Below are positions 1 to 61,889 of a stretch of 64,000 bases of DNA, one piece after another. How positions within the stretch are numbered: the stretch's first letter is position 1; each line of letters starts with the position of its first letter. Source of the stretch: Eledone cirrhosa (Eukaryota); NCBI GenBank assembly GCA_964016885.1, contig OZ024742.1:134106001-134170000 (forward strand), written 5' to 3'. A program made the translations under genes and the position numbers. The notes under the pieces were generated by a model. It had not been told where the DNA came from and searched no databases. It worked only from the letters and a program-made list of their open reading frames with translations.

Positions 1-152
1 GTTTGTTTACAAACACACCGAGCATTATAATAAATGTTCGGTGAATCCATACGTACATATATATGTGTGTGCATGTATGTATATATATATTCATATACTG
101 TACTTATACATACTTATGTATATATATACATATATATATATATAGGTGTATT

Positions 153-210
153 ATACTATGAACATTTCAATGACCGGGTTCAGTATGAATCCGGTTATAT
201 CATCAGGTAT
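153..210 (-). ncRNA. Type I hammerhead ribozyme
   Basis: Minus strand: atac CTGATGA tata accggattca tac tgaacccggt catt GAAA tgttca TA gtat. Stem I atac/gtat, long stem II, AUA cleavage triplet. Confidence 0.8.
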
Positions 211-790
211 TCAAAATATAACAAAGGAATATAACAGATAAAATCCATGGGGCTGAACATCAGAGACAAGAGGATGACCGACTATTTAGCAGCTTCTACC
301 TCAGTCGGCCGCCCTCAAGTGTTGATTATTAAGTCTACTTATGACCATCTGTTGATGGGCGCAAGCTTATAATGTGCTACTACCTTCCCGTCAAAGAGAA
401 ATGTCAGCATTGAGGTCATGCCACAATAAAGTTGACTATGCGTGCTAGAAATTACCGCGAAAAATGTTTTTTCCAAATAACATATATCTTTAACAAAGGT
501 ATATATAGTGGGCGCCTGTATGGTATAATGTGTGGACAGAAACTTCGGTTAGCAATTAGAAACGTTAAACTTATGTTTAGAGTTATATGATGAAATAAAA
601 TTTAATATTTGGGTTGTGAGATTTAGTTAAAGAATTTACAGAAATAGTCTTTTATGAAAAAGTTTAAGTGTATTATAGATAGTCTCGATAAGTTTTCAGG
701 GTAGGATATATAGTAAAGATTAAGCCCTTGTTTAGCAGTCAATAACCAGCGACGACTGCAGACCCTGGCCAGACCTCCCTAACCACGTGT

Positions 791-1245
791 CAGCCGTTCC
801 GAGTAATATCGTCTAGCGAAAGAAATGGAAATGGGAAGCACTCCAGGAATGTAACTGTCTTAGGCGTCGGGTGTGTAAGCGGGAAGTCAGCCATCGCCGT
901 CAGGCCATCGTTTATACCAAACGAATACTATTAATTCACACAGGAGGGGAATTTAGTTACATGCCACTAGGGGGAGGCATGATACAGCTAATAGTTATGA
1001 TTAAGCCTATAATTTAAAGGTACTATTTGGCGGTCAAATCCGGCAGCGCGGCGAGTTCCAAGTCCGACTGGGCCCCGGGGCGAAGCAGCCGTTCCGAGTA
1101 ATTTCGATTACCGTAAGGAGGGGAAATTTAATTTTCAAAGCATTCAAGGAAGTCTTATCAACCCGAGTGCGTGGCGTGCAGTCGGGAAAGCCGCCACATC
1201 CATCGGATCATCGCGTGTTACCAAACGATTATTATATATTCACAC
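791..1245. repeat. Diverged ~295 bp-period duplication inside the 2 kb element
   Basis: cagccgttccgagtaat at 791 and 1086; taccaaacga..ta...attcacac at ~915-940 and ~1219-1245. Confidence 0.75.
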
Positions 1246-2190
1246 CCGTGATGTGAAGTTGGAAGTGGTAAAACCCGATGTAATGCGCAAATAGACTATA
1301 TTTAGTCACCAGTTAATCCGGGTTATAAGTAGTGTGGTTCTTGGGTGGGTAGGGGGAGTGAATAAAGATAAACAGATATGAGGGTACAGAGAGTAATATT
1401 CTAGGGCCGTGTGCTAATGAGCACAGTGATTAGTATATAATGTGAGTAAAGCGAGTAGATAAATAGCTAAATAGAAGGAATAATAAGCAAAATAAATAAA
1501 TAAAAAGCAAAATACAAAAATACAAATACATACATACAGATACATAAATAAAACGCCGTCATAACTAGGGTGGTGATGGAGTAAAACGGAAGTATATAAG
1601 AACATATCGGAGAAATCAAAACACAGGGGAAATACAATATAGATCAAGGTGTAGTTGGATAATACAATGTTATACATATAGATATAGAGGATGGACGAGA
1701 TGGAATGGTATCAGATGATACATAGTGTATGTTCGAGTCTCAGAAATCAATGTGAATCACAACGGCGCTGAAGTATAGGATAGAGAATTCAGTCAATACA
1801 ATACAACTCATAGTATAATACGTAGAATGTTGTCGGAGTCTGAATATTCCCGACAGGGAAGCAGCAGTGGACCAGGTGGGCGGTAGACAAAATCCGAATG
1901 TTGTGTAGATCAGTTAGTCCCATGCTGGCGAAAGCTGTACACTGGAGTCAGTGCCGCTGTTCATTATTACAACTGAAAGCCCTCGACATTTCTGGAGCAT
2001 TATTTATTTAGGGTTGTTGGTTCGCCATTGGATAGAACTGTTCATTCCGTATGGCCAATCTCGATGTAATATTATGGAGAGCACTCAACGTAATGCAACT
2101 CACCTGTTTTCGTTTGTGTAGTTGGTGGTGCGAGTACGGAGTTAATTATTATAGGAGGCTGGACCGGTGTAAATCCTTGAAAGGTTTATT

Positions 2191-2248
2191 ATACTATGAA
2201 CATTTCAATGACTGGGTTCAGTATGAATCCGGTTATATCATCAGGTAT
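2191..2248 (-). ncRNA. Type I hammerhead ribozyme (second copy)
   Basis: Same motif as 153-210, with one stem II substitution. Confidence 0.8.
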
Positions 2249-2472
2249 TCAAAATATAACAAAGGAATATAACAGATAAAATCCATGGGGCTGAAAATCA
2301 GAGACAAGAGGACGACCGACTATTTAGCAGCATCTACCTCAGTCGGCCGCCCTCGAATGTCGATTATTAAGTCGACTTATGAGCATCTGGTCATGCCACA
2401 ATCAGGCTGCCTATGCGTGCTAGAAATTGCCGCGAAACATCTTTTTTCCAAAGAACTTATATCTTCAACAAA

Positions 2473-2511
<39 letters not shown>

Positions 2512-4573: not shown

Positions 4574-5003
4574 GGGAATTTCAAAATCATGTAATCTCAC
4601 TCAATGCAGGGTTGAAAGTTGCTAAACGCACATGCTACCAACACATGCATTTTAGCACTGGCAACGACATGAAGGGTTCTCGTTCGCCAAAAAATAGCAG
4701 TCCAACATATCGACGATAAACCGCTCACCAAGTAAGGATCAGACATATTATTATTATTACTTTCAAAGTAAAGGGTGTCATGACCGTGAAATGTATTCTG
4801 ATTTTGTGGAGAATACATATTAGGGAAATATACGTATATATATATATAATATATATATATATGTGTGTGTGTGTGTAGGAGGTGAGTTTTATTGTAGTAC
4901 AATAAAGCAATGCAGATATCGGATAAGTAACACTCTACAATTTGTAGGACTGGAGTATAAATAATAATATATAAGATCAAAAGATGGTTAAAAGAGTTCC
5001 ATG

Positions 5004-5074
5004 TATTTTATTATGCGCATTTCAAAAACAAATATCATCATGCAATAACATTTGCGTTTTCGTCAGATAAAATA
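5004..5074 (-). ncRNA. Type I hammerhead ribozyme, intact
   Basis: Minus: tattttat CTGACGA aaacg caaatgttatt gcat gatgatatttg ttttt GAAA tgcgca TA ataaaata. 8 bp stem I, palindromic stem III. Confidence 0.88.
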
Positions 5075-5144
5075 GGGAGACATGATATGAAGGTTAACAC
5101 TGCACTATTCACAAATGTGTTTTAACCTTCATATCATGTCTCCC

Positions 5145-33261: not shown

Positions 33262-33325
33262 TATATATATAATTATAATGAAATGACAGGAGGCTGGATT
33301 TGTGTAAATCCTTGAAAGGTTTATT

Positions 33326-33383
33326 ATACTATGATCATTTCAATTACCGGGTTCCGTATGAATCCGGTGATATCATCAGGTAT
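33326..33383 (-). ncRNA. Type I hammerhead ribozyme in a solo repeat (33289-33487) of the 145-2478 family
   Basis: Minus: atac CTGATGA tatc accggattc atacg gaacccggt aatt GAAA tgatca TA gtat. Perfect TGATCA palindrome. Confidence 0.85.
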
Positions 33384-33484
33384 TCGAAATATAATACGTG
33401 AATGTAATAGTTAAAATCCATGGGGCTGAAAATCGAGGACCCGAAGGCGACCGCTATCCTGCACCCTCTACCTTAGCCGGTCGC

Positions 33485-33529
<45 letters not shown>

Positions 33530-39680: not shown

Positions 39681-40335
39681 TATATATATGTGTATATATA
39701 TTAGAAAGTGAAGTTTTTTTACAAAATGAAAAATAACCGAGTGAAAGTATAAAGAAAAAAAGATGAAATCTAAAATGCAACTGGAGTCTTATTTTTTAAA
39801 AATATATATATATTTGACTATAGCACTGAGATAGCGTTTAAGCATAATAAGATGTATAAAAATGATACGTGTCAATAAAACAATAACAATAAAACTATAG
39901 GTTCCTCGCTATCAAAGAAAAATATTTTTTCGAAAAGAAAAGGTGTTTTAAATCACGATTGTAAGAAACGCTGGATATGCAACGCAGCGGTTATAAGATG
40001 TGTTATTAATTCGTCGGTGATTTACTATAGTCAATTTATAATTTTACTTCATTTATACATATATGATATGTTAAACATACGTTTTCATATGCATCGTTAT
40101 TATGCTTAGCCACGAGCTTAGTGAGATTTCTAATTATTTATAATCTGACAAGTTTGCACTTATATGCAATTGCACTATATGCAACTGAGCATCTCCGGCA
40201 AGTTTTCACCACCCAACGTTCCATGCAAACCCTAATCTATTTCGATGTCAGGACCGGATGAGGGCTTGTCACTGATGAAATATTAAGAAATCTTGAGAAA
40301 TAGTACTCACCGATATTGAGAAAATCCACACAGAC

Positions 40336-40366
<31 letters not shown>

Positions 40367-40376
40367 TACACACATA

Positions 40377-40471
<95 letters not shown>

Positions 40472-40472
<1 letters not shown>

Positions 40473-40795
40473 GCAACTTTACATGTGCATCTAAAAACCT
40501 AATCTATGTTTTGAACTGCTCAGGTTGTCAAGAACACTACATAGGACAGACAAAAAACACCCTCCGTCAATGTATGACCGCCCATACATCACAAATCATA
40601 ATACAGGAATGCAGAAAGATTTCGTTTAGTGAACATATCATCAATTGTGCAGCCAACCAACATCCAAACTTAAAAATTGTCCCCATTTACAAATTCATAG
40701 ACAACGCTACTTTCATCCATCGTACCAATAAGGAAACGTATTTCATTAACACATTCCAACCTCTACTCAATGCATTGAACTTCGGACTAAACTAA
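40472..40795 (+). pseudogene. PLE GIY-YIG endonuclease fragment (Neptune/Nematis-type CCHH)
   Basis: NFTCASKNLIYVLNCSGCQEHYIGQT..LRQ...H...EH...KETYFI...P.LN. 3' UTR runs to ~41400 with a decayed hammerhead at 41238-41274 (cat ttgataa t gcat aaaa atgc t GAAA ccag TA ata). Confidence 0.85.
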
Positions 40796-41896: not shown

Positions 41897-42082
41897 GTTG
41901 TTATATAGTAAAGTGTATTATTAGTTGTTTAAAATGTTCCAGTCAATTTATTTTAGCAATATTAAGTTCTCCACGCTTTTGTATGTCTCCAATTCCATTC
42001 AAGGGAACAGCTAGATGATGTAAAACGGAGTATAAGTATCAAAATGAAAATCCGAAGGCAAGGTAAAATTCCAATCATTTAA

Positions 42083-42155
42083 TCACGACACATATTTCAA
42101 TAGGAGATAGATCGATTGTGAAGCCATATCGATAATCACAGATCTCATCAGGTGA
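42083..42155 (-). ncRNA. Type I hammerhead ribozyme in the PLE 3' repeat
   Basis: Minus: tcac CTGATGA gatc tgtga...tcaca atc gatc tatctcctatt GAAA tatgtg TC gtga. The core is deleted in the right arm. Confidence 0.72.
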
Positions 42156-43152
42156 AAATGAATTGTCTTCAAATTATTGATATGAGGGAGAAAAATAATG
42201 ATGTTCTCTCACAAAATTCATTCCTTGATATACAGACACACCAGTCAGAGAAATGGCGACTGCTATTAACTTCAGTTGAGGTCATAAAAGTTGTTAGATT
42301 TCTATCGCCGCAAAAGACGCTGGACATCAATCAAATCTGTAGGGATATAGTTAATGTGAGTGGGTACACACACACTCCACACCCCATACACCGGCTCGAA
42401 GTCAAAGAAAAAAAAAATATATATACACACATTAACACAGTATCAAATCTGTAGAATTGTAAGAGGTCACAGTTAGTGTGGGTGGGTACACACACACGCT
42501 CACACACACCGAAGCGATGTCAGAGAAAAAAAACAACAAATATAGGAAAACAAATATAAGAATGTACCAACACAACACTCATCGAAAGTTAGTTCACAAA
42601 ACAAAAGATACTACAATGGTCAAATCCCTATTGGACGATGTAAATTGGAAATATTGGGTTAATCAACGCCCCATACACACACACACACGCGCGCGCACAC
42701 ACAAGCAAGTAAGTTCAGTTCAGTGTTCTGCTATACGTGTATAGATCGAATTGTAACATCCATATCTTCAAGTGTATGTTATGGTATATACACATCCGAA
42801 TCGTTCAAAAAAGGATATGTCTGGGTATATACACATCCATGTGAAGAGCAAGCAATCAGCTCATATCGAACTCAGTATGTACCGCTGTCCCATTAGAGAA
42901 TCCGAGTCACCATATCCGTGCGTTCAAGCCACCGCAATGTAGGCCAACAAGGTGCTCCGTGTAGGGTTGGGTATTGGGTAAATGCGTCAGTAAGTGCGAT
43001 TTCCCGTCATATGGGCCAATGAACGTTTAAGATAGTCGTTTGAGTGGTGGAGGTGTTTTATCCAACAGAGAAGGTGAAGTAAAAAAACACAGGATAGTAA
43101 AATCCAGAGGATGTGTGTAGGCCCACTAATGGTGTGTAAGTATTATTGTTCA

Positions 43153-43341
43153 GGTGGATTGGCAGTATCGGTAGAGGGTCTGACGCTATGCTTTGCAGCA
43201 AAGAGTTACGCCCCTTTATGGTTTGAGTTCAAATCCCGCCGAGGTTAACTTTGCCTTTCATCCTTACGGGGTCGATAAAATAAAGTACCAGTAATGCACT
43301 GGATAATTGCTGGCCTTGTGCCAAAAGTAGAAACAATTATT
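43153..43341 (+). mobile_element. tRNA-derived SINE inserted into the PLE left arm, 11 bp TSD
   Basis: attattgttca at 43142-43152 and 43336-43346. Empty site in the right arm at ~45939-45950. Confidence 0.92.
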
Positions 43342-43646
43342 GTTCAATCTGTAACAGTGAGTCCTCCATGGTTAGGGTATCTTAAAGTAAAGGTAGGTGT
43401 GCGTAATCGGTCATGCATGAGTGTTCAATCAATTAGTAACAAGGTATTCTAAGTGTGTAATCAATCTAACTATTTACTACCTAGGTATTCTAAAAACAGT
43501 GCACTCAGCTGTGAGAACTCCGTGAAAACAGGCCGAGTATCGTTTGTAAGTGCGCAAACAATCTTAGCCGTCTAACTACCTGAGTGTGTGACTGTTTATT
43601 GAGAGAACTCTATGGCTAAAGTAGAGAGGGAGCCATTAGTGGTAGG

Positions 43647-45390
43647 TTACCTTCCAAAATTCCTGCGGAAGGTTTTCAAGATTCTATGTTGGCAGTTGCT
43701 GAAAAAATCAGATCTCCTATTAATTAATAGGGGGCCGCCTCTAATAATATTAAAGGTTTCAGCTATACATAAATTGCAGACGTCATTGCTGCCGTTATAA
43801 GGTGGGGGTTAAGCAAACTATGGACCAGGAAAAGGAGTGCTCTATATTCTGATATTTAAGCTTCCAGACTAATTCAGAAAGTGCCGTGATGTTTTTTTTA
43901 TCTAATCTATTAAAGGTATGGCGGTGATTATACCATCTATCCTTAAATTCTATGGCAGTTGCCCGAACATACCTAAAGGTTCTATCAGGAGTGGAGACCT
44001 TACAGTCGTAGACTATGTTATTGGTAAAGCATTTCCCAGCCATGGGGCAGGTGGCGGTGCTTATGTAGTTACATATTTTGCTATCGACCTGGGTAGTTCC
44101 AGATGGACCACGGTTCCTTAGGGGTCGGGTCTCAGTTCCTGTCTGCTCTATAGGTAAATTCCCTGGGGTTGGGGAGACCCGAATCGCCTCACGTGTATGA
44201 GTCAGTTCCTCCATAGAATTCCATCTTGGGCTGTCCTATATCTACTATAATTCATCTTAACTATATTCTGAGCTATGTTAATAGTTGTGGAGTAGGACAG
44301 CTTGATGGTATTCCTATTGAGTAAGTTATAATATCTGTGCAATCTAGGGAAGCATTTGTCTAATGCCCTAAAGGAAAGCTTAGCTATACTAGTGGTCAGG
44401 CCAGTGGAGTAAGGGGGGTTATACCACAGGACTTTTCTGGTACGAGGCCTCTTGTTCTTACTAACTATATTAGAGTTACTTGTCTCCCTAATAGTTACTG
44501 GTCTATTGCCACTGGAAAATGCCTGTGGGTCGATGGTGTCCTGGGGTGTCACGATTGTGTTCGGAATCGTCCCAAGTCTCCATGGCGGTGTACCCCCCGT
44601 GCAGCTATTGGGATTACCCTCGATAGCTGAGGTTATATCCACTAAGCGTCTGCTACACCTGTCCCTATTCCCCTTACTCGACCCTCGTTTCAAACTGCGT
44701 TCAACGGTAGTTTTATCGCTTCTACAATTAAGGTTACCATTAGAGTTTTCGCTGGTGTTACGTTGCTCAGACCCCGGGTTAGTACATGGGTGGTTGTTTC
44801 TATTGTTACCAACAGCATTGGAACTAGGCGGCAATACAACATGAAGTCTATATAAATCCTCCCTCGTATCACGCCTGCTGTTAACTAGAGTGTCACTATT
44901 TAGGCCTAAGCTATTGCAGGCAATGTTGCTTCTACTATTTAATGGAAGTTTGAATCAGATTCTCTCGCTATGCCCCGCGCGTTCCAGGGCGCTATTATAG
45001 TAATTCGAGATCTTATTAAATTTATCTTCATTAGAAGATTGTCCTGAAATTCTACTAGAGACGCTCTTGGTAATACCGTTAGTGACTATTCCAGGGTTGT
45101 TCGATTTTGCGTTGACATAGTTTAAATTCTCGTTGGGTTTGTGGTAGGGTTGGAGGGTCCTGAATTGAGGTTAAGTGTAACATCTAGAAAATTAACTATA
45201 TTTAAGTTCTCTTCAAATACTATACTTGGGTCTATGTTCTTGAAGAATTTACTTAGTTTTTTCCTCGCCCTCTCTACCATACTATTATTATGGAACAACA
45301 CAGTAAACAAAACGTCGTCACGGTAAGCGCCGCCTCCCAAGTGGGGCATTTCCACTCCGAGACAGTCAAGGAGGTAAAGGCCCACCTGAT
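43647..45390 (-). pseudogene. PLE RT (C-terminal half) + GIY-YIG endonuclease, frameshifted
   Basis: YRDD, NFLDVTLNL, WYNPPYS..LNRNTIKLSYS, CPMAGKC..NIVYDC..FKDRWYNH, CNLC..E. Confidence 0.92.
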
Positions 45391-47035
45391 TTTTTCAGCA
45401 ACGGCCAACATAGAACCCCGAAAACCTTCCGCAGGATTTTTGGAAGGTAACCTACCATTAACTTCTCCCTCTCTACTATAGCCATAGAGTTCTCTCAATA
45501 AACAGACAGTCACATACTCAGGTAGTTAGACAGGCTAAGATTGTTTGCTCACTTCAAACGATACTCAGCCTGTTTCCACGGAGTTCTCACAGCTGAGTGC
45601 ACTTTTTTAGAATAACTAGCTAGTAAATAGTTAGATTGATTACTCACTTAGAATATCTAGTTAGTAATTGATTGCACATTCAGGCATGACCGATTACGCA
45701 CACCTACCTTTACTTTAAGATACCCTAACTATTGAGTTCTCTCAGTTGGGATATAGCTAATCGTAATACACACTTAGTCAGAACCGATTACGCTCTCTAT
45801 ACATAACTCTACACACAGTACCCGTTTCCTTTAGACATTGAGCACCCACAATTACGACCGTCACGTTCCTACCGACTGAACTCTATACCAGGTTTTGGTC
45901 CGTGATCATCTAACCATGGAGGACTCACTGTTACGGATTGAACAATAATACTTACACACCATTAGTGGGCCTACACACATCCTCTGGATTTTACTATCCT
46001 GTGTTTTTTTACTTCACCATCTGTGTTCGATAAAACACCTCCACCACTCAAACAACTATCTTAAAAGTTCATTGGCACAGATGACGGGAAATCGCACTTA
46101 CTGACGCATTTACCCAATACCCAACCCTACACGGAGCACCTTGCTGGCCTACATTGCGGTTGCTTGCACGTACGGATTTGGTGACTCGGATTCTCAATGG
46201 GACAGCGGTACATACTGAGTTCGATATGAGCTGATTGCTTTCTCTTCACATGGATGTGTATATACCCAGACATACCCTTTTTTGGACGTATCGGATATGT
46301 ATATACCATAACATACACTTGAAGATATGGATGTTACAATTCAATCTATACACGTATAGCAGAACACTGAACTGAACTTACTTGCTTGTGTGTGTGTGTG
46401 TATGGGGCGTTGGTTAACCCAAATTTTCCAATTTACATCGTCAAATTGAGATTTGACCAGTGTAGCAGCTGTTGATTTGTGAACTAACTTTCGGTGAATG
46501 CTGTGTTGGTACATTATTATATTTGTTTTCTTATATTTGTTTTTTTCTTCTCTGACATCGCTTCGGTGTGTGTGAGAGTGTGTGTGTACCCACCCACACT
46601 AATTGTGACCTTTATAATTCTACAGGTTTGATACTGTGTTGATGTGTGTATATATATGTATATATTGTTTTCTTTGACATTGAACCGGTGTGTGTGGTGT
46701 GGAGTGTGTGTGTACCCACTCACATTCACTATATCCCTACAGATTTGATTGATATCCAGCGTCTTTTGCAGCGATAGAAATCTGACAACTTTTTATGACC
46801 TCAACTGAAGTTAATAGCAGTCGCCGTGTTTCTGACTAGTGTGTCGTCATATGAGGGAATGAATTTTGTGAGAGAACATCGTTATTTTTCTCCCTCATAT
46901 CAAGAAATCGATCAACAAATCGATCTATCACTTATTGAAATCGATCTATCACTTATTGAAACATGTGTCGTGATTAAATGATTGGAATTTTACCTTGCCT
47001 TCGGATTTTCATTTTGATATATATACACATATATA

Positions 47036-47470: not shown

Positions 47471-47855
47471 GATGTATATATATCAAAATGAAAATCCGAA
47501 GGCAAGGTAAAATTCCAATCATTTAATCACGACACATGTTTCAATAAGTGATATATCGATTTTAAGCATTATATTATAACTGTTATGCAGTACACCTGAT
47601 GATGTCCCTGGAATTCTACTGGCCATTGAAGTGTCTGCAAAATTAATAACATTAATGGAATATTAACCTTCCAGCTGCTTGTCTCTTTATTCAACAATAA
47701 TATTTAACTTTATTCACGCACCACCAACAGAATCTTACATCAAAATAGTTGAGCTCCGTACGTTGAGTGCTTTACTAACTAATGCTTCATTATTATCTAT
47801 ACGGAATGAAGAGTTCTATCCAGTGTTGAATAACAAACATGAATGCATATATATG

Positions 47856-49652: not shown

Positions 49653-52600
49653 TGGTAGCTACCAACTCGTTTTCGAGTACGGCCACTACTTTATATCTAT
49701 GTGGGAGAACTCCTACCGATGCGCTGAACGAGTGTGGTATTTTAGTCCAGCCAGCGACTTGAAACCTCTGGTACAAACACTACACTTGTGACAATTATTG
49801 ACACCTAGTGCTGGGCCCATGGTACCATGTGACCCAAGGTGTCGTGTGAGATCACTACTCGACCTGCATACCCTTCCACAAACATTACTTGTCGTCGTCT
49901 GTTGAAAACTTATAGCACCACAGGTGCCCGCTTCCCAGTTCTTGTGCACTCTCACGTGACACTTTAGACCTGTCATGCTCAGAGAAACCCTATTACAGGT
50001 CTCACATGTCAGGTCAGGCCGTCTGTCAGTGCTGTCGGGAAGGCCAACATGGATTCCTTTCCGGACATCTCTTTTTGGTGTCGCGTGCCTTCTTGTTTCC
50101 TCAAATAGACTCTTGCCACTAGCCACTGCTTTCCTCCAATGCGATCGGTCACTAGTGCATGCTTCCCAGTTCTCACAAAGGATGTTACTTTTCTTGAGCA
50201 CCCCCTTGATGCAGTCCTTAAAACGCATCTTGAGTTTGCTCGCGTTCCTTTTTCAGATTTGGAGATCGCCATAAAGCAGCTACTTCAGCATTCGCTTGTC
50301 ATTCCTCCTTACAAGATGTCCTGTCCAGCGCAGCTGATATTTCGAAATCAAGGACTCGACACTATCACAGGCACTTCTGTCCAGAACCTCGACGTCACTG
50401 ACAAACATTTGCCAAGTTATGCCGAGGATCCGACGTAATCTGTACTGGTGGAACCTCCGAAATCGCTTCATCTGTCTACGGTAGACCACCCATGTCTCAC
50501 ACGCATAAAAAAGTGCCGCGAGCACACACGCATGATACACTTTGAGCTTTGTCTTTACCGAAATTCCGTGTTGAGAGCAGAGACACTTGTTCAGTTTTCC
50601 AAAAGTATCACTGGCTTTCTGTATCCTGTTTGATATTTTCCATCAAGATCGCAGGACATACTCAGAGCGCTTCCAAGATATACAAAACTGCCAACGACCC
50701 TTAGCCTTTCACCATAAACCAAGATGTTGGGCTCACAACATGGCTTCCCAGGGGCTGCGTGGTACATGGTTACCGTCTTTTTCAGGCTTATGGTAAGTCC
50801 CAATGCAGTACACGCATTAGAAAATGCATCCATGATATGCTGCATATCAATCTCCGTGTGCGCTACCAGGTCACAGTCATCTGCATAAAGCAGATCCCTG
50901 ATTAGTGACAAGTGAACATTTGACTTAGCATTGAATGTCCTGATATTAAACAGCTTTCCGATAGCGAATATATATACCATGATTGCTGTTCCCGAAGGCC
51001 TGTTCGAAGACAATGGAGAAGTACAAAGCAAAGAGCATTGGAGCTGGAATGACATCCTGTTTGACTCCATTCTCGACCGTCACCAGCTCAGAGAGCTTTC
51101 CACCAACATTTACCCATGCCTTCATGTCATCATGAAACAAACGCAAAATGGAAACAAACTTCTCAGGGCACCCCAGCTTCTTCAATATATCCCATAAAGC
51201 CTTTCTGTTGACCATGTCAAACGTCTTTGTCAGATCAACAAACACCTGGTAGAGATCCACATTCTGCTCAACACACTTTTACTGCAGTTGCCTGGCTGTA
51301 AAGATCATGTCCACAGTGCCACGCCCAGCCCGAAAGCTCGATTGCGACTCTGGTAGAGCTTCATCAGCAATCTGGAACAATAAACGGTCCAACAGAATTC
51401 TACAGAGAACTTTGCCGACAACAGACAACAGAGATATCCCACGATAGTTTCCGCAGTTATCCCTGTCTCCCTTTCCCTTGTACAAAACAACCATCACAGC
51501 ATCCTTCCAGTCATTGGGATGGGAACATGATTGTTGTTCCAGGCATCCAGAACCAAAGAACGAAGTCGGTGCAAGAGATTCTCTCCACCGTGCTTCAAGA
51601 TCTCAATATACAGCCCGTCCAATCCAGGCAACTTCCCTACCATTCAGTTTCCAGACATCACTTTTAACCTCCTTGATAGTTGGAGGCTCAGCAAGGATTT
51701 CCTTTACTGGCTTATTTCCTTTACTCTTCGTCAACCTCTGAATCCCTATTGAGAATCTCGTCAAAGTGATCTCGCCATCTCAACAGGATATCATTGGGAT
51801 TTCTAAGGAGCTGATTGCCATCCTTTGTCATAAGAGGCGCAACTGGTGATGTAGGTCGTCCATACATTGCCTTAACGTCCTTCACATCCGACGCAAGTTT
51901 TATTTCATAGGCTTTGTCATTCCACCTCTTATTCTTCATTTCACGCAATTTTCGTTGCACATCAGCTTTTACGAGCTTCAGCTTATCAGCGATTGCCTTC
52001 TGCCGATCGTTGCTTAAATCACTACCAAGCAGTGCGGAGTGGAGCATATGTTTCTCCTCCAAAAGCTTGTCTATAAGTTTGTCATGTTGGTCAAACCGAT
52101 CCTGATGCTTCTTATCCGCGAATCCAACAATATCAGCACATTCCCCATAAACTGTCTCCTTAAAGGAAGTCCAGTCATTTCCGCACTCTTACGCATCCAT
52201 CTTTCTAACCAGTTTTTCTCTGACTTCAGGATCCTTCAGACGGGCAACGTTAAGCCGTTTGGGAAGTGATACCCCTCGCCGTTTCTCCCTTTTACGAACT
52301 ACACATCTTGCTCTTGCTCTCACAAGACGATGGTCGGTCTAACACTCTTCCCCAGGCATCACACGAACACTGCACAGATCCTATACATCCCGCCGCCTCA
52401 CAAGGAGATAATCAATCAGGTGCAGTGTTCTATTCAGGATGCATCCATGTTGTCTTGTATCTGTCCTTCTGTTGGAACATAGTGGACCCAATGAACAAGT
52501 TCAGCTCAGTGCACATTTGCAATAACAAGAGTATATTGCCATTGCACTTTCCGACCCCATGCTTACCCAGAGCTCTCTAGGTCTCACAATCACGGCCCAC

Positions 52601-54776: not shown

Positions 54777-54815
<39 letters not shown>

Positions 54816-54855
54816 GATATTAAATAAATGGAAACTATATTTATAAAACCATATC

Positions 54856-54921
54856 TATTTCATTATATATATTTCAGGGATATCATATTAACAATATGTT
54901 ATGCCTTCCTCAGACAAAATA
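54856..54921 (-). ncRNA. Type I hammerhead ribozyme (3' pLTR)
   Basis: Minus: tattttgt CTGAGGA agg cataa catatt gtt aatatg atatc cct GAAA tatata TA atgaaata. Confidence 0.8.
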
Positions 54922-55771
54922 CAATATAGACAGTTTTATAGATAAATAGATTTGACATACCGTTCAACATCGACTTGTATTTGAAAAAGTTGATTTGGCA
55001 GTGAAAAATTGTAAACAGAAAGAAAGAAAGAAAGAAAGAAGGAAAGAAAGAAAGAAAACGAAGAAAAAGAAGAAAAAGAAGAAATGCATGCAACAAAATA
55101 GAGAGATGGAAAGATAGATAAAGAGAAGAACTTCATGTAAAGAAACAGAGAGAGATATATATAGAGAGAGGAAATAGATAGAGATAGATATATATAGAGA
55201 AAAGTAGGTAGTTGAACATCCGTTGAATGAACGTATCAATGATACATTTATTTATTTATTTATTTATTTAGCTCTAGTATTAATGTAAGGGAGATATATG
55301 TGGTTAGGAAAGAAACCAGCCGTTATATAGAGAGAAAAATGAAAAGTAACCAGACATAGGCGAGGCAGAATTTAAAAACCCTATGTTTTAATGTAGAAAT
55401 ATTAGTTCGTATAAAAACCAGGCACTATAATGTCAATATCAGTATTCCTGAATGAGACACGTATCCATAATGTGTGAAAAGTAATGATCTTATGTCTAGT
55501 TTTAAAAATTCATATGTTTATATGATAACTACAAACATCGATGTGAATTTACGTGATCAACTCTGCAAACCCCTATTTCACACGGAGAACATTCTCATTG
55601 TGCTATAAAAATTTAAGTATACATATATGTGTATATATACACATATATATAGAGTCTATATTAATTTTAACAATACTATTCTTGTCTTTACTCTACATGA
55701 TTATCTATCAAGCAGAAATAGAGAACAGATTTCAATATATTAATAAAAAATATCAGAAACAAAAACAAAAA

Positions 55772-55867
<96 letters not shown>

Positions 55868-56348
55868 CAAATAGATAAAATAGAAAACTAAAAAATATTA
55901 CATATTAAAAATAAAAATATTAAAAATATTAAAAAATATTAAAATAATAAAAATAAAAACATAATAGAAACAAAATATGCCACGCAAATCGACCACAAAG
56001 ATCAACCCTTCAAAATTAATTGACAATATATTGCCAAGTTCATTATAAGCATCAGAGTCGAAAACAGATAAAGCTAAAAATTAAAAATGATTTACCAAAT
56101 CGCGTCTAGCAGAAATCATTTCAAAAAGTTTAGGATGCCCATTTGGTCTACATATGTTCTTATATTTAATATAGAAGTTTATCTAGTGTAACGTTTATTC
56201 GATATATTTGGAGCATCAACTTTTAGGGTAGTTTAATTTTTCATGAAGAATGTTTAAATAAAAATAAAAATAAAAAGAAGAATAAAAAGAAGAAATCGAA
56301 AGATTTATCGGCTAGTTTCCCAAATAATTATAAATCAAACTTAATATA

Positions 56349-58561
56349 CTACATTTTAAATTTAAATTTATATTTAAAAGTTGAGTTCAATCTATGTTTG
56401 CAGCAACTGAATAAATTTGTCCGTAGATTAAGGGAATTTTAGATTTTAGTATAAAGAATATCTCCTCCGCGCAGAGGTCATATATCTCAGAGGATGAATT
56501 AAAAGGAATCCCTCTTGAGACTATATTCCAAGCCGTCAAATATCTAACGTTATCTTGCCTAAGTTGCCAGAGTACGCCTGATAATGCTGTTGAAGATTTT
56601 TTGCTTGGATCTGTGAAAGAATTCTTGTGGTTATTATAGCGAAGTTTAAATTCCGTCAATGTGGAACCGACGTAGTTAAAAGAATTAGAGTCCGTTTTAA
56701 CATTACAGTTGTATATTATATTTTTAACTAAGCAGTTGTTATTTAACGGACATTTAGATCTATCTCTACAGTTACATTTGTTAACTTGTATATTATTTAT
56801 GTTATTATCGCTAGGTTTTAAGTTCCTATTATTTATTCTATAAATATTTTGTGCTAAATTTTTGGTGGATGAGTAGGTTAATTTTATAGTATGTCTATTG
56901 AAAATTGAGTGATACCTATGTGTTCTAGGGAAGCGATTATCAAGAGCTTTAAAAAATAGTTTAGCGATGTGGGTTTTAATGTTTAGTGAGAAAGGGGGGG
57001 GGGCAAACCATATTATGTTCCTAGTTCTATTTCTTTTTTGGCTTTTGGAATTATTGTAATGCTCTCTATTATAGTTGTTAAGGTTGTGGCCGTAATTAAA
57101 ATAGTTGTTATTTTGTTTAGTTTGTCTATCATTATCCATGTACATAATCTTATCACTATATCCTGCTCTAGCTAACGCTTCATTGTAGTACTGGGCTTTT
57201 TCGTCGAAAATCTTTCTATTAGACGAGATTCTAGAGATACGTTTTTGAACAGAGTTTACTATAGAGTTTTTGACAGAATGGGGTGGTTAGAGTTAAAGCT
57301 GACATAGTTTAAGTTTTCATTCAACTTGTGAAAAGGATAGTGAAGACATGTTGAGATTTAATGTTATATCTAGGAAATTGACTATTCTATGTTTGTTCTC
57401 AATTTCTATTTTTAGATTAAAGTAATTAAAAAATTGTGTAATTTGTTTTCTTTTTCTATTTAGTTCAGAGTTATTATTATCAATAAGTAAAAGCATGTCA
57501 TCTCTATATAAACCTCCGGTAGTACCAGGTATTTTCCTATGTAGCGAATTGATTAAAAATAAGCCCACAAGGTCAGTTACCTGAGCTGAGTCGGATGATC
57601 CCATAGTAATGTCAAAATTGCTATCCCTATCTGCTCTGGTCCATAGTTGGTCATTAAATGCTATCAATGTTTTCCTAGCCGAGAATATAATGTGCATTTC
57701 ATTGCTAGTTAGGTCTGTATGTTTGAATGCGTAATTTAGTGCCTTATTTAGTAGATTAGGGGTAATAGAAGAATAATAGTTAGCAATATCAAGTTGAATA
57801 AACTTATTATTATTGTTATATTTAATTTGCTTAAACCACTCAACAACCTCTCCAGTTCCCTTCCACAAGCTCAGGTTAGGTAAACAATCCAAGTTTTTAA
57901 TTTGCTGTATCACCCTGTCAAGAATGTTTTTGCTTAATTTGCCCAGGTCCGATTTTGATGGTGCGATCAATCTAACTGGCAAGTCATTTTCAAAATTCCT
58001 TTTGTGATCTTTCATATTGATCTTCGGTTTCCTGGGCACGAAAGGTTGTGTTCTGTTCTCAATTTCCAACTCGTGCATTATACAAGATGCTTCGACATTC
58101 ATTTTCTCAAGCTCAGCCTTATCTGCTACCTTGTACTTTTTCCTCAGTTCCTTCAGTATGAGGCCATTATACATGTCTTTCTGCACTCCATAGAGGTTGT
58201 TGGTCTTGTCAGATTTCACCAAGATCCTCTCAGTTTTCTCTAAGCGCTCAATATTATCCTTAATGCCTTTCAGATATTCCTGGCCTTTGAAGTTTCTCTT
58301 GAATTTGACCCCTTGTATGATAGAAATTATATCGTTTTCAAAGTCAGATAAAAGTTTGTTAGGGGGTGGATTTCTTTTAGATTTGAAAACTTTGTTTAAG
58401 TCCGAGACATTTTCGTTTATATTAGATTTATCAAAGTGGAATGCTCGCCACATGATTCTCCTTATAAAAGAGTCAGATTTATCTATTAATTGTTTTATAA
58501 AGTCTTTGTTTCTAGGTAGAGGTATGTCTTTTAAAGAGGAAGTAATGTTAAAGAATTCCAT
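56349..58561 (-). pseudogene. PLE RT + C-terminal GIY-YIG ORF (~735 codons, Hydra-clade-like), three small indels
   Basis: KSDKTNN, KDHKRNF..RLIAPSKS, LDIANYY, MGSSDSA, YRDD, FLDITL, CNCR..CPL..CL..IIY..YVG..RYNNH, (C)DLC. Indels near 57350, 57280 and 56436. Confidence 0.95.
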
Positions 58562-58739
58562 TTTTTCAGTTATAATATAAAGCGCTCAACAGTATTGGAG
58601 CAAGATACATGGAAAGTTATATTTAAATTGTTGGGTTACAACTAGTAAATATTTATAACTGATATAAAAGCACTCAACAAGTATTTGGAGTATATTTACG
58701 ATATTATATAAATGGAAACTATATTTATAAAACCATATC

Positions 58740-58805
58740 TATTTCATTATATATATTTCAGGGATATCATATTAACAATATGTTATGCCTTCCTCAGACA
58801 AAATA
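58740..58805 (-). ncRNA. Type I hammerhead ribozyme (5' pLTR)
   Basis: Identical to 54856-54921, about 180 nt upstream of the ATG. Confidence 0.8.
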
Positions 58806-59649
58806 CAATATAGACAGTTTTATAGATAAATAGATTTGACATACCGTTCAACATCGACTTGTATTTGAAAAAGTTGATTTGGCAGTGAAAAATTGTAAAC
58901 AGAAAGAAAGAAAGAAAGAAAGAAGGAAAGAAAGAAAGAAAACGAAGAAAAAGAAGAAAAAGAAGAAATGCATGCAACAAAATAGAGAGATGGAAAGATA
59001 GATAAAGAGAAGAACTTCATGTAAAGAAACAGAGAGAGATATATATAGAGAGAGGAAATAGATAGAGATAGATATATATAGAGAAAAGTAGGTAGTTGAA
59101 CATCCGTTGAATGAACGTATCAATGATACATTTATTTATTTATTTATTTAGCTCTAGTATTAATGTAAGGGAGATATATGTGGTTAGGAAAGAAACCAGC
59201 CGTTATATAGAGAGAAAAATGAAAAGTAACCAGACATAGGCGAGGCAGAATTTAAAAACCCTATGTTTTAATGTAGAAATATTAGTTCGTATAAAAACCA
59301 GGCACTATAATGTAAATATCAGTATTCCTGAATGAGACACGTATCCATAATGTGTGAAAAGTAATGATCTTATGTCTAGTTTTAAAAATTCATATGTTTA
59401 TATGATAACTACAAACATCGATGTGAATTTACGTGATCAACTCTGCAAACCCCTATTTCACACGGAGAACATTCTCATTGTGCTATAAAAATTTAAGTAT
59501 ACATATATGTGTATATATACACATATATATAGAGTCTATATTAATTTTAACAATACTATTCTTGTCTTTACTCTACATGATTATCTATCAAGCAGAAATA
59601 GAGACAGATTTCAATATATTAATAAAAAATATCAGAAACAAAAACAAAA

Positions 59650-59684
<35 letters not shown>

Positions 59685-60579
59685 ACAAATAAATGTCCGT
59701 TAAATAACAACTGCTTAGTTAAAAATATAATATACAACTGTAATGTTAAAACGGACTCTAATTCTTTTAACTACGTCAGTTCCACATCGACGGAATTTAA
59801 ACTTCGCTATAATAACCACAAGAATTCTTTCACAGATCCAAGCAAAAAATCTTCAACAGCACTATCAGGCGTACTCTGGCAACTTAGGCAAGATAACGTT
59901 AGATATTTGACGGCTTGGAATATAGTCTCAAGAGGGATTCCTTTTAATTCATCCTCTGAGACATGTGACCTCTGCGCGGAGGAGATATTCTTTATACTAA
60001 AATCTAAAAATTCCCTTAATCTACGGACAAATTTATTCAGTTGCTGCAAACATAGATTGAACTCAACTTTTAAATATAAATTTAAATTTAAAATGTAGTA
60101 TATTTAGTTTGATTTATAATTATTTGGGAAACTAGCCGATAAATCTTTCGATTTCTTCTTTTTATTCTTCTTTTTATTTTTATTTTTATTTAAACATTCT
60201 TCATGAAAAATTAAACTACCCTAAAAGTTGATGCTCCAAATATATCGAATAAACGTTACACTAGATAAACTTCTATATTAAATATAAGAACATATGTAGA
60301 CCAAATGGGCATCCTAAACTTTTTGAAATGATTTCTGCTAGACGCGATTTGGTAAATCATTTTTAATTTTTAGCTTTATCTGTTTTCGACTCTGATGCTT
60401 ATAATGAACTTGGCAATATATTGTCAATTAATTTTGAAGGGTTGATCTTTGTGGTCGATTTGCGTGGCATATTATGTTTCTATTATGTTTTTATTTTTAT
60501 TATTTTAATATTTTTTAATATTTTTAATATTTTTATTTTTAATATGTAATATTTTTTAGTTTTCTATTTTATTTATTTG

Positions 60580-60615
<36 letters not shown>

Positions 60616-61468
60616 TTTTGTTTTTGTTTCTGATATTTTTTATTAATATATTGAAATCTGTTCTCTATTTCTGCTTGATAGATAATCATGTAGAGTAAAG
60701 ACAAGAATAGTATTGTTAAAATTAATATAGACTCTATATATATGTGTATATATACACATATATGTATACTTAAATTTTTATAGCACAATGAGAATGTTCT
60801 CCGTGTGAAATAGGGGTTTGCAGAGTTGATCACGTAAATTCACATTGATGTTTGTAGTTATCATATAAACATATGAATTTTTAAAACTAGACATAAGATC
60901 ATTACTTTTCACACATTATGGATACGTGTCTCATTCAGGAATACTGATATTTACATTATAGTGCCTGGTTTTTATACGAACTAATATTTCTACATTAAAA
61001 CATAGGGTTTTTAAATTCTGCCTCGCCTATGTCTGGTTACTTTTCATTTTTCTCTCTATATAACGGCTGGTTTCTTTCCTAACCACATATATCTCCCTTA
61101 CATTAATACTAGAGCTAAATAAATAAATAAATAAATAAATGTATCATTGATACGTTCATTCAACGGATGTTCAACTACCTACTTTTCTCTATATATATCT
61201 ATCTCTATCTATTTCCTCTCTCTATATATATCTCTCTCTGTTTCTTTACATGAAGTTCTTCTCTTTATCTATCTTTCCATCTCTCTATTTTGTTGCATGC
61301 ATTTCTTCTTTTTCTTCTTTTTCTTCGTTTTCTTTCTTTCTTTCCTTCTTTCTTTCTTTCTTTCTTTCTTTCTGTTTACAATTTTTCACTGCCAAATCAA
61401 CTTTTTCAAATACAAGTCGATGTTGAACGGTATGTCAAATCTATTTATCTATAAAACTGTCTATATTG

Positions 61469-61534
61469 TATTTTGTCTGAGGAAGGCATAACATATTGTT
61501 AATATGATATCCCTGAAATATATATAATGAAATA
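61469..61534 (+). ncRNA. Type I hammerhead ribozyme (inverted copy)
   Basis: tattttgt CTGAGGA ... GAAA tatata TA atgaaata on the plus strand. Confidence 0.8.
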
Positions 61535-61661
61535 GATATGGTTTTATAAATATAGTTTCCATTTATTTAATATCGTAAATATACTCCAAATACTTGTTGA
61601 GTGCTTTTATATCATTTATAAATATTTACTAGTTGTAACCCAACAATTTAAATATAACTTT

Positions 61662-61710
<49 letters not shown>

Positions 61711-61758
61711 TATATACAATATATTAACAAATGGAAACTATATCTATAAAACCATATT

Positions 61759-61824
61759 TATTTTATTATATATATTTCAAGGGCCACCAAGGCAAATCAT
61801 GATGCGCTTTCATCAGATAAAACA
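61759..61824 (-). ncRNA. Type I hammerhead ribozyme of a sister PLE family (element end from ~61718)
   Basis: Minus: tgttttat CTGATGA aag cgcatca...tggtggc cctt GAAA tatata TA ataaaata. Flanks homologous to 54817-54875, stem II replaced. Confidence 0.8.
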
Positions 61825-61889
61825 TAATACAGATTAGTTTTATAAATAAATATTAACATACCCTGAAAAAAGGCAACGTTAACGGTTGG

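Follow-up and report, generated by a model that had tools for sequence, protein, structure and literature searches.

The window analysed here, 64,000 nt of the Eledone cirrhosa genome (contig OZ024742.1, positions 134,106,001 to 134,170,000), raises the question of what kind of element carries two hammerhead motifs on one strand with no evident gene between them. An earlier note, made from the sequence alone, took the locus for a 2-kb non-coding, retrozyme-like parasite of Penelope-like elements (PLEs). We find that it belongs to a large repeat family whose members are very probably non-autonomous Hydra-type PLEs, a judgement based on the structure of the copies, their targets, their ends and a leader organization common to intact Hydra-clade elements.

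The insertion occupies positions 145..2482 (minus strand), abuts (TA)n on both sides and is a partial tandem, composed of a 2038-nt non-coding unit and a 5′-truncated second unit. As the note had claimed, it includes two near-identical minus-strand hammerhead motifs within direct repeats; both are of type I. The 3′ motif (149..218) has its predicted cut at 156/157 and the 5′ motif (2187..2256) at 2194/2195, a spacing of 2038 nt. Both carry the CUGAUGA core, GAAA and the cut triplet AUA, a stem II of 9 positions with U.U and A.C mismatches, a stem I of 4+4 pairs with a bulge between them, and a stem III with a 6-nt insert; the stem III palindrome is broken in both. The pseudo-LTRs are formed by a 3′ direct-repeat copy (145..507, minus) and a 5′ copy (2183..2482, minus) carrying a 63-nt deletion; their first 214 nt are 94% alike and their last 94 nt 88% alike. 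A putative vestigial ATG (1962..1964, minus), aligned with the start codon of autonomous Hydra-clade leaders, is followed by a stop after 16 codons. The non-coding interior (508..1960, minus) is colinear between two subfamilies. Within it a stretch of about 155 nt occurs twice (791-941 and 1086-1245), the two versions being about 70% alike; this duplication is kept in many copies of the unit, and no role was found for it. In one sub-lineage (L008, L014, L017, L019, L220-L222 and L225-L227) a SINE-like piece is located at an (AAT) run just upstream of the vestigial ATG and has spread together with the unit.

The window copy is atypical in that its 3′ end is located just 12 nt beyond the left predicted cut and the usual 55- or 200-nt extension is missing. 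A third family member, also proposed in the note, is confirmed at 33.3 kb: it is short and 5′-truncated (33270..33487, minus), has its short end against (TA)n, is 82-84% alike over 33289-33487 and retains an intact hammerhead motif (33322-33391). Rfam returned no hammerhead in the window at the gathering score and, at E<=5, chance microsatellite-driven matches alone; a tRNA search found none. For each of the four hammerhead motifs tested, the monomer in its catalytic fold lies 13-20 kcal/mol higher than in the fold of minimum energy, and activity is accordingly a prediction.

The ORF for reverse transcriptase (RT) and GIY-YIG endonuclease located between the repeats of autonomous PLEs is absent from the unit, in agreement with the note. 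The longest frame free of stops in 145-2478 has 98 codons, the six translated frames have no match in Pfam, and neither the PLE proteins of the window nor an intact genomic one match the unit. Counting stops column by column revealed no majority-open frame longer than 127 codons in subfamily 1 (20 copies) or 92 codons in subfamily 2 (8 copies), and only 4 of the 25 fixed indels between the subfamilies are multiples of three. The idea that the unit is a decayed ORF was rejected on these grounds.

A parent combining this leader with an ORF was not found: the 13 exact matches to hairpin 2 are in no case followed by a PLE frame, and every long copy of the unit continues into the leader and never into an ORF. 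The genome searches scored the best 40 candidates each, a depth at which a rare parent could escape. Two candidate parents were rejected. At locus L044 (1081-3341) a unit fragment is fused, 8 nt past the hammerhead cut and via a shared CCTTT, to about codon 14 of an autonomous RT; 11 other copies over the junction keep their own leader and the locus is a chimera, possibly the product of template switching between the RNAs of parasite and helper. Locus L134 is a nested insertion, in which the unit is located within (TA)n upstream of another RT.

How is this family represented in the 3.0-Gb genome? Exact matches to a 23-nt fragment of the hammerhead occur 5,455 times, and the reversed control has 0, so that the family cannot be ascribed to chance; the palindrome-breaking variant found in the window adds 600 (reversed control 0). 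Full-length copies number only tens among these thousands, since a 23-nt motif confined to long copies has 13 exact matches (subfamily 2 may escape it) and 34 distinct long copies were collected. Most copies are 5′-truncated, dispersed and located in (TA)n, often as inverted pairs. Among the first 100 hammerhead matches listed, 22 close pairs are head-to-head inverted and one is tail-to-tail at 4.6 kb; there are no same-strand pairs within 5 kb. With so few such pairs and full-length copies, the two-hammerhead layout cannot be upheld as a family trait. A single full dimer was found (L065, units 99.8% alike) and no longer array. The double hammerhead is the ordinary partial tandem with pseudo-LTRs, also present in the autonomous PLEs of this genome: it represents PLE anatomy and not a retrozyme array.

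The length of about 2 kb given in the note is indeed conserved. Subfamilies 1 and 2 are 80% alike over aligned columns, colinear across the whole unit and both about 2.0 kb long (the period of subfamily 2 is 1.96-1.98 kb). Their best-conserved parts are the hammerhead and the leader. Hammerhead stems I and III vary among families in a pair-keeping manner, and the motif is kept in every family examined.

The 3′ ends of the insertions fall into two classes. In a position-ordered sample of 30 loci, which gave 35 distinct hammerhead segments, 17 ends are at +52 to +60 from the cut, 16 at +192 to +204 and 2 elsewhere, with none exactly at the cut; all 33 segments with a short or a long end finish against TA runs. 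A further 106 segments from score-selected loci include 43 short and 44 long ends, and the remainder mostly continues into the next unit. In the window the short site corresponds to 2140..2152 (minus, about +55 nt from the cut) and the long site to 1995..2010 (minus, about +200 nt), which we infer to be reverse-transcription starts 1 and 2 respectively. Outward-facing inverted pairs (n=32) tend to combine the two: 24 of the 26 that could be classified are long plus short (binomial p 5e-6). The distance between short and long ends is about 145 nt in the unit family and 85-95 nt in autonomous families. The family displays partial tandems with pseudo-LTRs, 5′ truncation and inverted upstream copies, all features of non-autonomous PLEs, and its alternative 3′ ends represent an optional tail of about 145 nt. 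A tail at one end, of 30-40 bp, is described for PLEs in parts of PMC8557442 and PMC3846280.

Both end sites adjoin a predicted hairpin of the leader. Hairpin 1 (2080..2142, minus; ACUC-C...GAGU-GCU with an AC-rich loop) is located directly 3′ of the short site and hairpin 2 (1978..1998, minus; GCUC-C-N9-GAGC-GCU in its family form) directly 3′ of the long site. In the predicted folds their closing pair differs in a compensating way; one closing pair of hairpin 2 is broken in the window copy. The order hammerhead, motif 1, motif 2, ATG is common to the unit and to two autonomous Hydra-clade families, and in all three the short end coincides with the 5′ foot of predicted hairpin 1 and the long end with that of predicted hairpin 2. 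The ends are at 55/200 and the hairpins at 60/204 in the unit; 12 short and 9 long ends are at 50-59/130-149 in family B-auto (hairpins at +56/+146), and 5 short and 2 long ends at 57-60/155 in family A-auto (hairpins at +60/+155). None of 2000 shuffles gave two motif hits, a flattering figure as the motif was defined after viewing three of these leaders; motif 1 is also present in three families left out of its definition. In plain local alignment the unit leader resembles the autonomous leaders only weakly (9/500 and 35/500 shuffles score equally high), while no shuffle in 500 scores as high as its alignment with the leader of sister family B. Folding of the leader is no better than that of shuffles (z -0.28). 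Taken together with the positions of the ends, the predicted hairpins probably set the start sites of reverse transcription and, by analogy with the anole Poseidon protein (PMC11167929), they are likely to be enzyme binding sites. A splice-donor-like CAG/GTGAGT occurs inside hairpin 1 (2098-2106, minus); in Penelope, an intron is located close to the hammerhead (PMC4209133).

The window also includes a potential source of enzyme, an autonomous-type Hydra-clade PLE (54815..61665, minus) whose ORF (58561-56387) is frameshifted in this copy. It has the same hammerhead, the twin-hairpin leader and one short and one long end. Its family is young and present in high copy number, and many copies (L207-L214) have an unbroken frame of about 745 codons. 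The period is about 3.8 kb, the intact protein has 737 aa and the 3′ UTR is about 1.4 kb long; the element is longer than the Hydra elements described, which are under 3 kb. The intact protein has no Pfam match and carries RIRWR (an RWK-type motif), DKT, a CxCX5C linker, CxxC, CxH and a C-terminal endonuclease. The RWK-type motif, DKT, CxCX5C, CxxC and CxH are the marks of the Hydra clade given in section 11 of PMC8557442, and would place the family in this clade; its hammerhead and (TA)n target point the same way. Assignment to Naiad or Nematis was dropped on the same marks. This family is our candidate enzyme donor for the unit.

Other related elements are also present. A copy of sister family B (47560..47848, plus) has a related hammerhead and leader with its long end against (TA)n. 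The family (L093-L116) yielded 854 first-look candidates with a covarying hammerhead, all those seen being short copies, and a pattern search found no full-length leader for it. A remnant of another Hydra-like PLE, at 42030-46960, has large inverted arms; its hammerhead motif is located near 42151 (minus). Fragments of two further hammerhead-bearing families are located at 4870-5075 and 61750-61830, with stem III inserts TGCGCA and TATATA respectively; the former fragment has hairpin 1 in a related copy (L084) and ends at a TA/CA run. The microsatellites and the SINE of the window appear octopus-like. Finally, a frame at 40304-40795, without Pfam match, resembles what we take to be GIY-YIG, and broken RT frames at 49713-52188 are presumably of LINE type.

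What template gave rise to these copies? Relative to the upstream cut, the 5′ ends of the 34 long copies are scattered between -443 and +237: 17 copies run upstream through the cut and only one stops within 5 nt of it (L160, which starts at +1). The length of the junction over the cut is exactly preserved in 79 of 83 cases, compared with 54 of 62 for a control interval. The scatter of 5′ ends and the exact junction length imply that the template spans the cut without a scar. Rare variants are common to the two arms of one insertion at a mean of 0.87, against 0.10 for random pairs, which shows that the arms have a common template and fits circular and linear molecules alike. The cut-site junction itself is uninformative concerning circularity, since thousands of genomic copies already contain the joined sequence.

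Copies exceeding one unit impose a further constraint. A long end is carried by 7 of 17 such copies of the unit and by 4 of 5 such autonomous copies. Inserted copies stop short of the hairpin that placed their end, and for this reason the 3′ repeat in an ordinary partial tandem cannot give rise to a copy with a long end. The long end requires a hairpin 2 beyond a complete unit, and copies of more than one unit hence need a circle, a multimer or strand transfer. The full dimer at L065 is the sole possible linear donor found.

We tentatively favour the view, at somewhat less than an even chance, that the window insertion is a full-length partial-tandem copy made in trans by a Hydra reverse transcriptase-endonuclease and inserted into (TA)n, possibly from circular RNA. 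A read-through transcript of a two-hammerhead copy would undergo cleavage at each of the two motifs, probably in dimeric form, and the resulting 2-kb monomer would be ligated into a circle. The Hydra protein would then bind hairpin 1 or hairpin 2, and copying would begin just 5′ of the hairpin, primed by nicked (TA)n. Copying would mostly end early, giving truncated copies, and would sometimes exceed one full turn, generating the pseudo-LTR; priming of both target strands, one per start site, would produce inverted pairs. That the template is circular is, taken by itself, plausible but a little short of probable. A circular RNA template was proposed in PMC4209133, and circular RNA has been shown for small retrozymes (PMC7229834, in part). 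A ligated circle explains simply how the template crosses the cut without a scar, and an uncut multimer or homology-guided strand transfer does so equally.

The wider idea that Hydra-clade PLEs and their 2-kb parasite both make circular RNAs through their hammerheads, and that the duplicated hairpin recruits a dimeric reverse transcriptase to two sites, each serving one target strand, is rather unlikely as a whole. If true, the unit would represent the largest animal retrozyme-like circle in the literature searched and the leader would be a portable signal by which a Penelope enzyme could insert any RNA of 2 kb into (TA)n.

A non-autonomous Hydra-type element could also be copied from uncut linear RNA, either from a multimer master locus or by a start in the 5′ leader followed by homology-guided transfer to the 3′ repeat, the hammerhead acting late or being simply a passenger. 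We regard this as a serious possibility, although not a probable one. Homology-guided transfer is scarless and uncut RNA therefore fits all the end and junction data; in the parts of PMC11167929 covered, uncut RNA is the main substrate of the anole Poseidon protein and hammerhead cleavage is dispensable for insertion in vitro. Moreover, a circle is not required for PLE anatomy since Naiads, which are without hammerheads, make the same tandems and tails (PMC8557442, in part). The weak catalytic fold, the amplification of the palindrome-breaking variant to 600 exact copies and the existence of one full dimer with nearly identical units also fit. However, the hammerhead, among the best-conserved parts, is retained with pair-keeping changes in every family examined, 5′ ends show no pile-up that would mark a fixed transcription start, and no array beyond the dimer was found. 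If, on the other hand, double cleavage yielded a linear monomer on which the enzyme jumped from the 5′ to the 3′ end without ligation, cleavage alone would account for initiation in the leader and for read-through of the cut, and the copy beginning at +1 (L160) would be explained. An untemplated jump should leave stops and indels at the cut, but just one of the 34 long copies stops there and 79 of 83 junctions are exact, making this route improbable.

Even less probable are three other origins of the unit: an autonomous PLE that has decayed, the long 3′ UTR belonging to an autonomous parent that escaped detection, or a repeat that spread as DNA. Autonomous Hydra elements in this genome do have 3′ UTRs of about 1.4 kb, and a rare parent could lie beyond the best 40 candidates of each search. 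Nevertheless, all long copies run into the leader rather than into an ORF, there is no majority-open frame and the fixed indels are mostly frame-breaking, while the dispersal of the copies into (TA)n, with 3′ ends that are fixed and 5′ ends that are ragged, is a pattern of retrotransposition.

Among known systems, Hydra-clade PLEs (Craig et al. 2021, PMC8557442, here and below in its main-text parts) share with the unit a canonical hammerhead, (TA)n targeting, partial tandems, inverted 5′-truncated copies and a tail at one end. The unit differs in having no ORF and in a distance between ends of about 145 nt instead of a tail of 30-40 bp. These parts of the paper include no non-autonomous Hydra element or leader hairpins. 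The Chlamys non-autonomous PLEs of the same paper, such as MRC1, are also non-coding, with pseudo-LTRs and a 3′ end resembling autonomous families; they are found in a green alga and mostly have no hammerhead, and what the unit shares with the autonomous families of this genome is a pair of short structured motifs rather than alignable sequence.

The Poseidon element PAc of Anolis carolinensis (Frangieh et al. 2024, PMC11167929, in part) also has two internal starts 3′ of the hammerhead cut and an AC-rich stem-loop, requires an RNA stretch 3′ of the start, and nicks and extends both target strands. In contrast to the unit it is autonomous, belongs to another clade and has its start sites 30-40 nt apart inside the ORF. 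The parts of that paper covered include no duplicated hairpin or long-plus-short pairing rule, and report no RNA-seq reads ending at the hammerhead cut. The origin of PLE pseudo-LTRs and tails and the role of the hammerhead are treated as open in the covered parts of PMC8557442 and PMC11167929. The unit family reduces this problem to a few cis parts (the hammerhead, two predicted hairpins and two start sites) common with young, intact helpers; with it, circle and strand transfer could be tested against each other directly in vitro, and it provides a candidate minimal signal for mobilizing foreign RNA.

With non-LTR retrozymes (Cervera and de la Pena 2020, PMC7229834; Li, Clavereau and Pollet 2026, bioRxiv 10.64898/2026.07.22.740005; both in part) the unit shares its non-coding nature, a type I hammerhead per unit, low GC and kinship to PLE pseudo-LTRs. 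According to the literature passages covered, axolotl HHR_Amex2, whose cleavage is better in the dimer, likewise has a U.U pair at the stem II base. Retrozymes are tandem repeats, dimers to multimers under 1 kb, whereas the unit family is almost never tandem, and its length of about 2 kb compares with 150-450 bp in the former study and with 51-972 bp in the latter, where the period search was limited to 1000 nt. This suggests that size-capped retrozyme searches, like Rfam models, miss kilobase-long hammerhead-bearing non-autonomous PLEs. Searches of a mostly open-access literature, in its main texts, listed no description of the unit family or of its twin hairpins. The proposal of a 2-kb non-coding retrozyme-like PLE parasite thus stands in part: the unit is non-coding, about 2 kb long and, as judged from its ends and leader, very probably PLE-dependent, but the two-hammerhead layout is not general and full-length copies are rare, numbering only tens. 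In its working it would resemble a PLE-dependent retrozyme, without the tandem arrays and the small size of retrozymes. Its size is a modest novelty; the pattern of ends and hairpins is more useful, since it renders the mechanism of PLEs testable.
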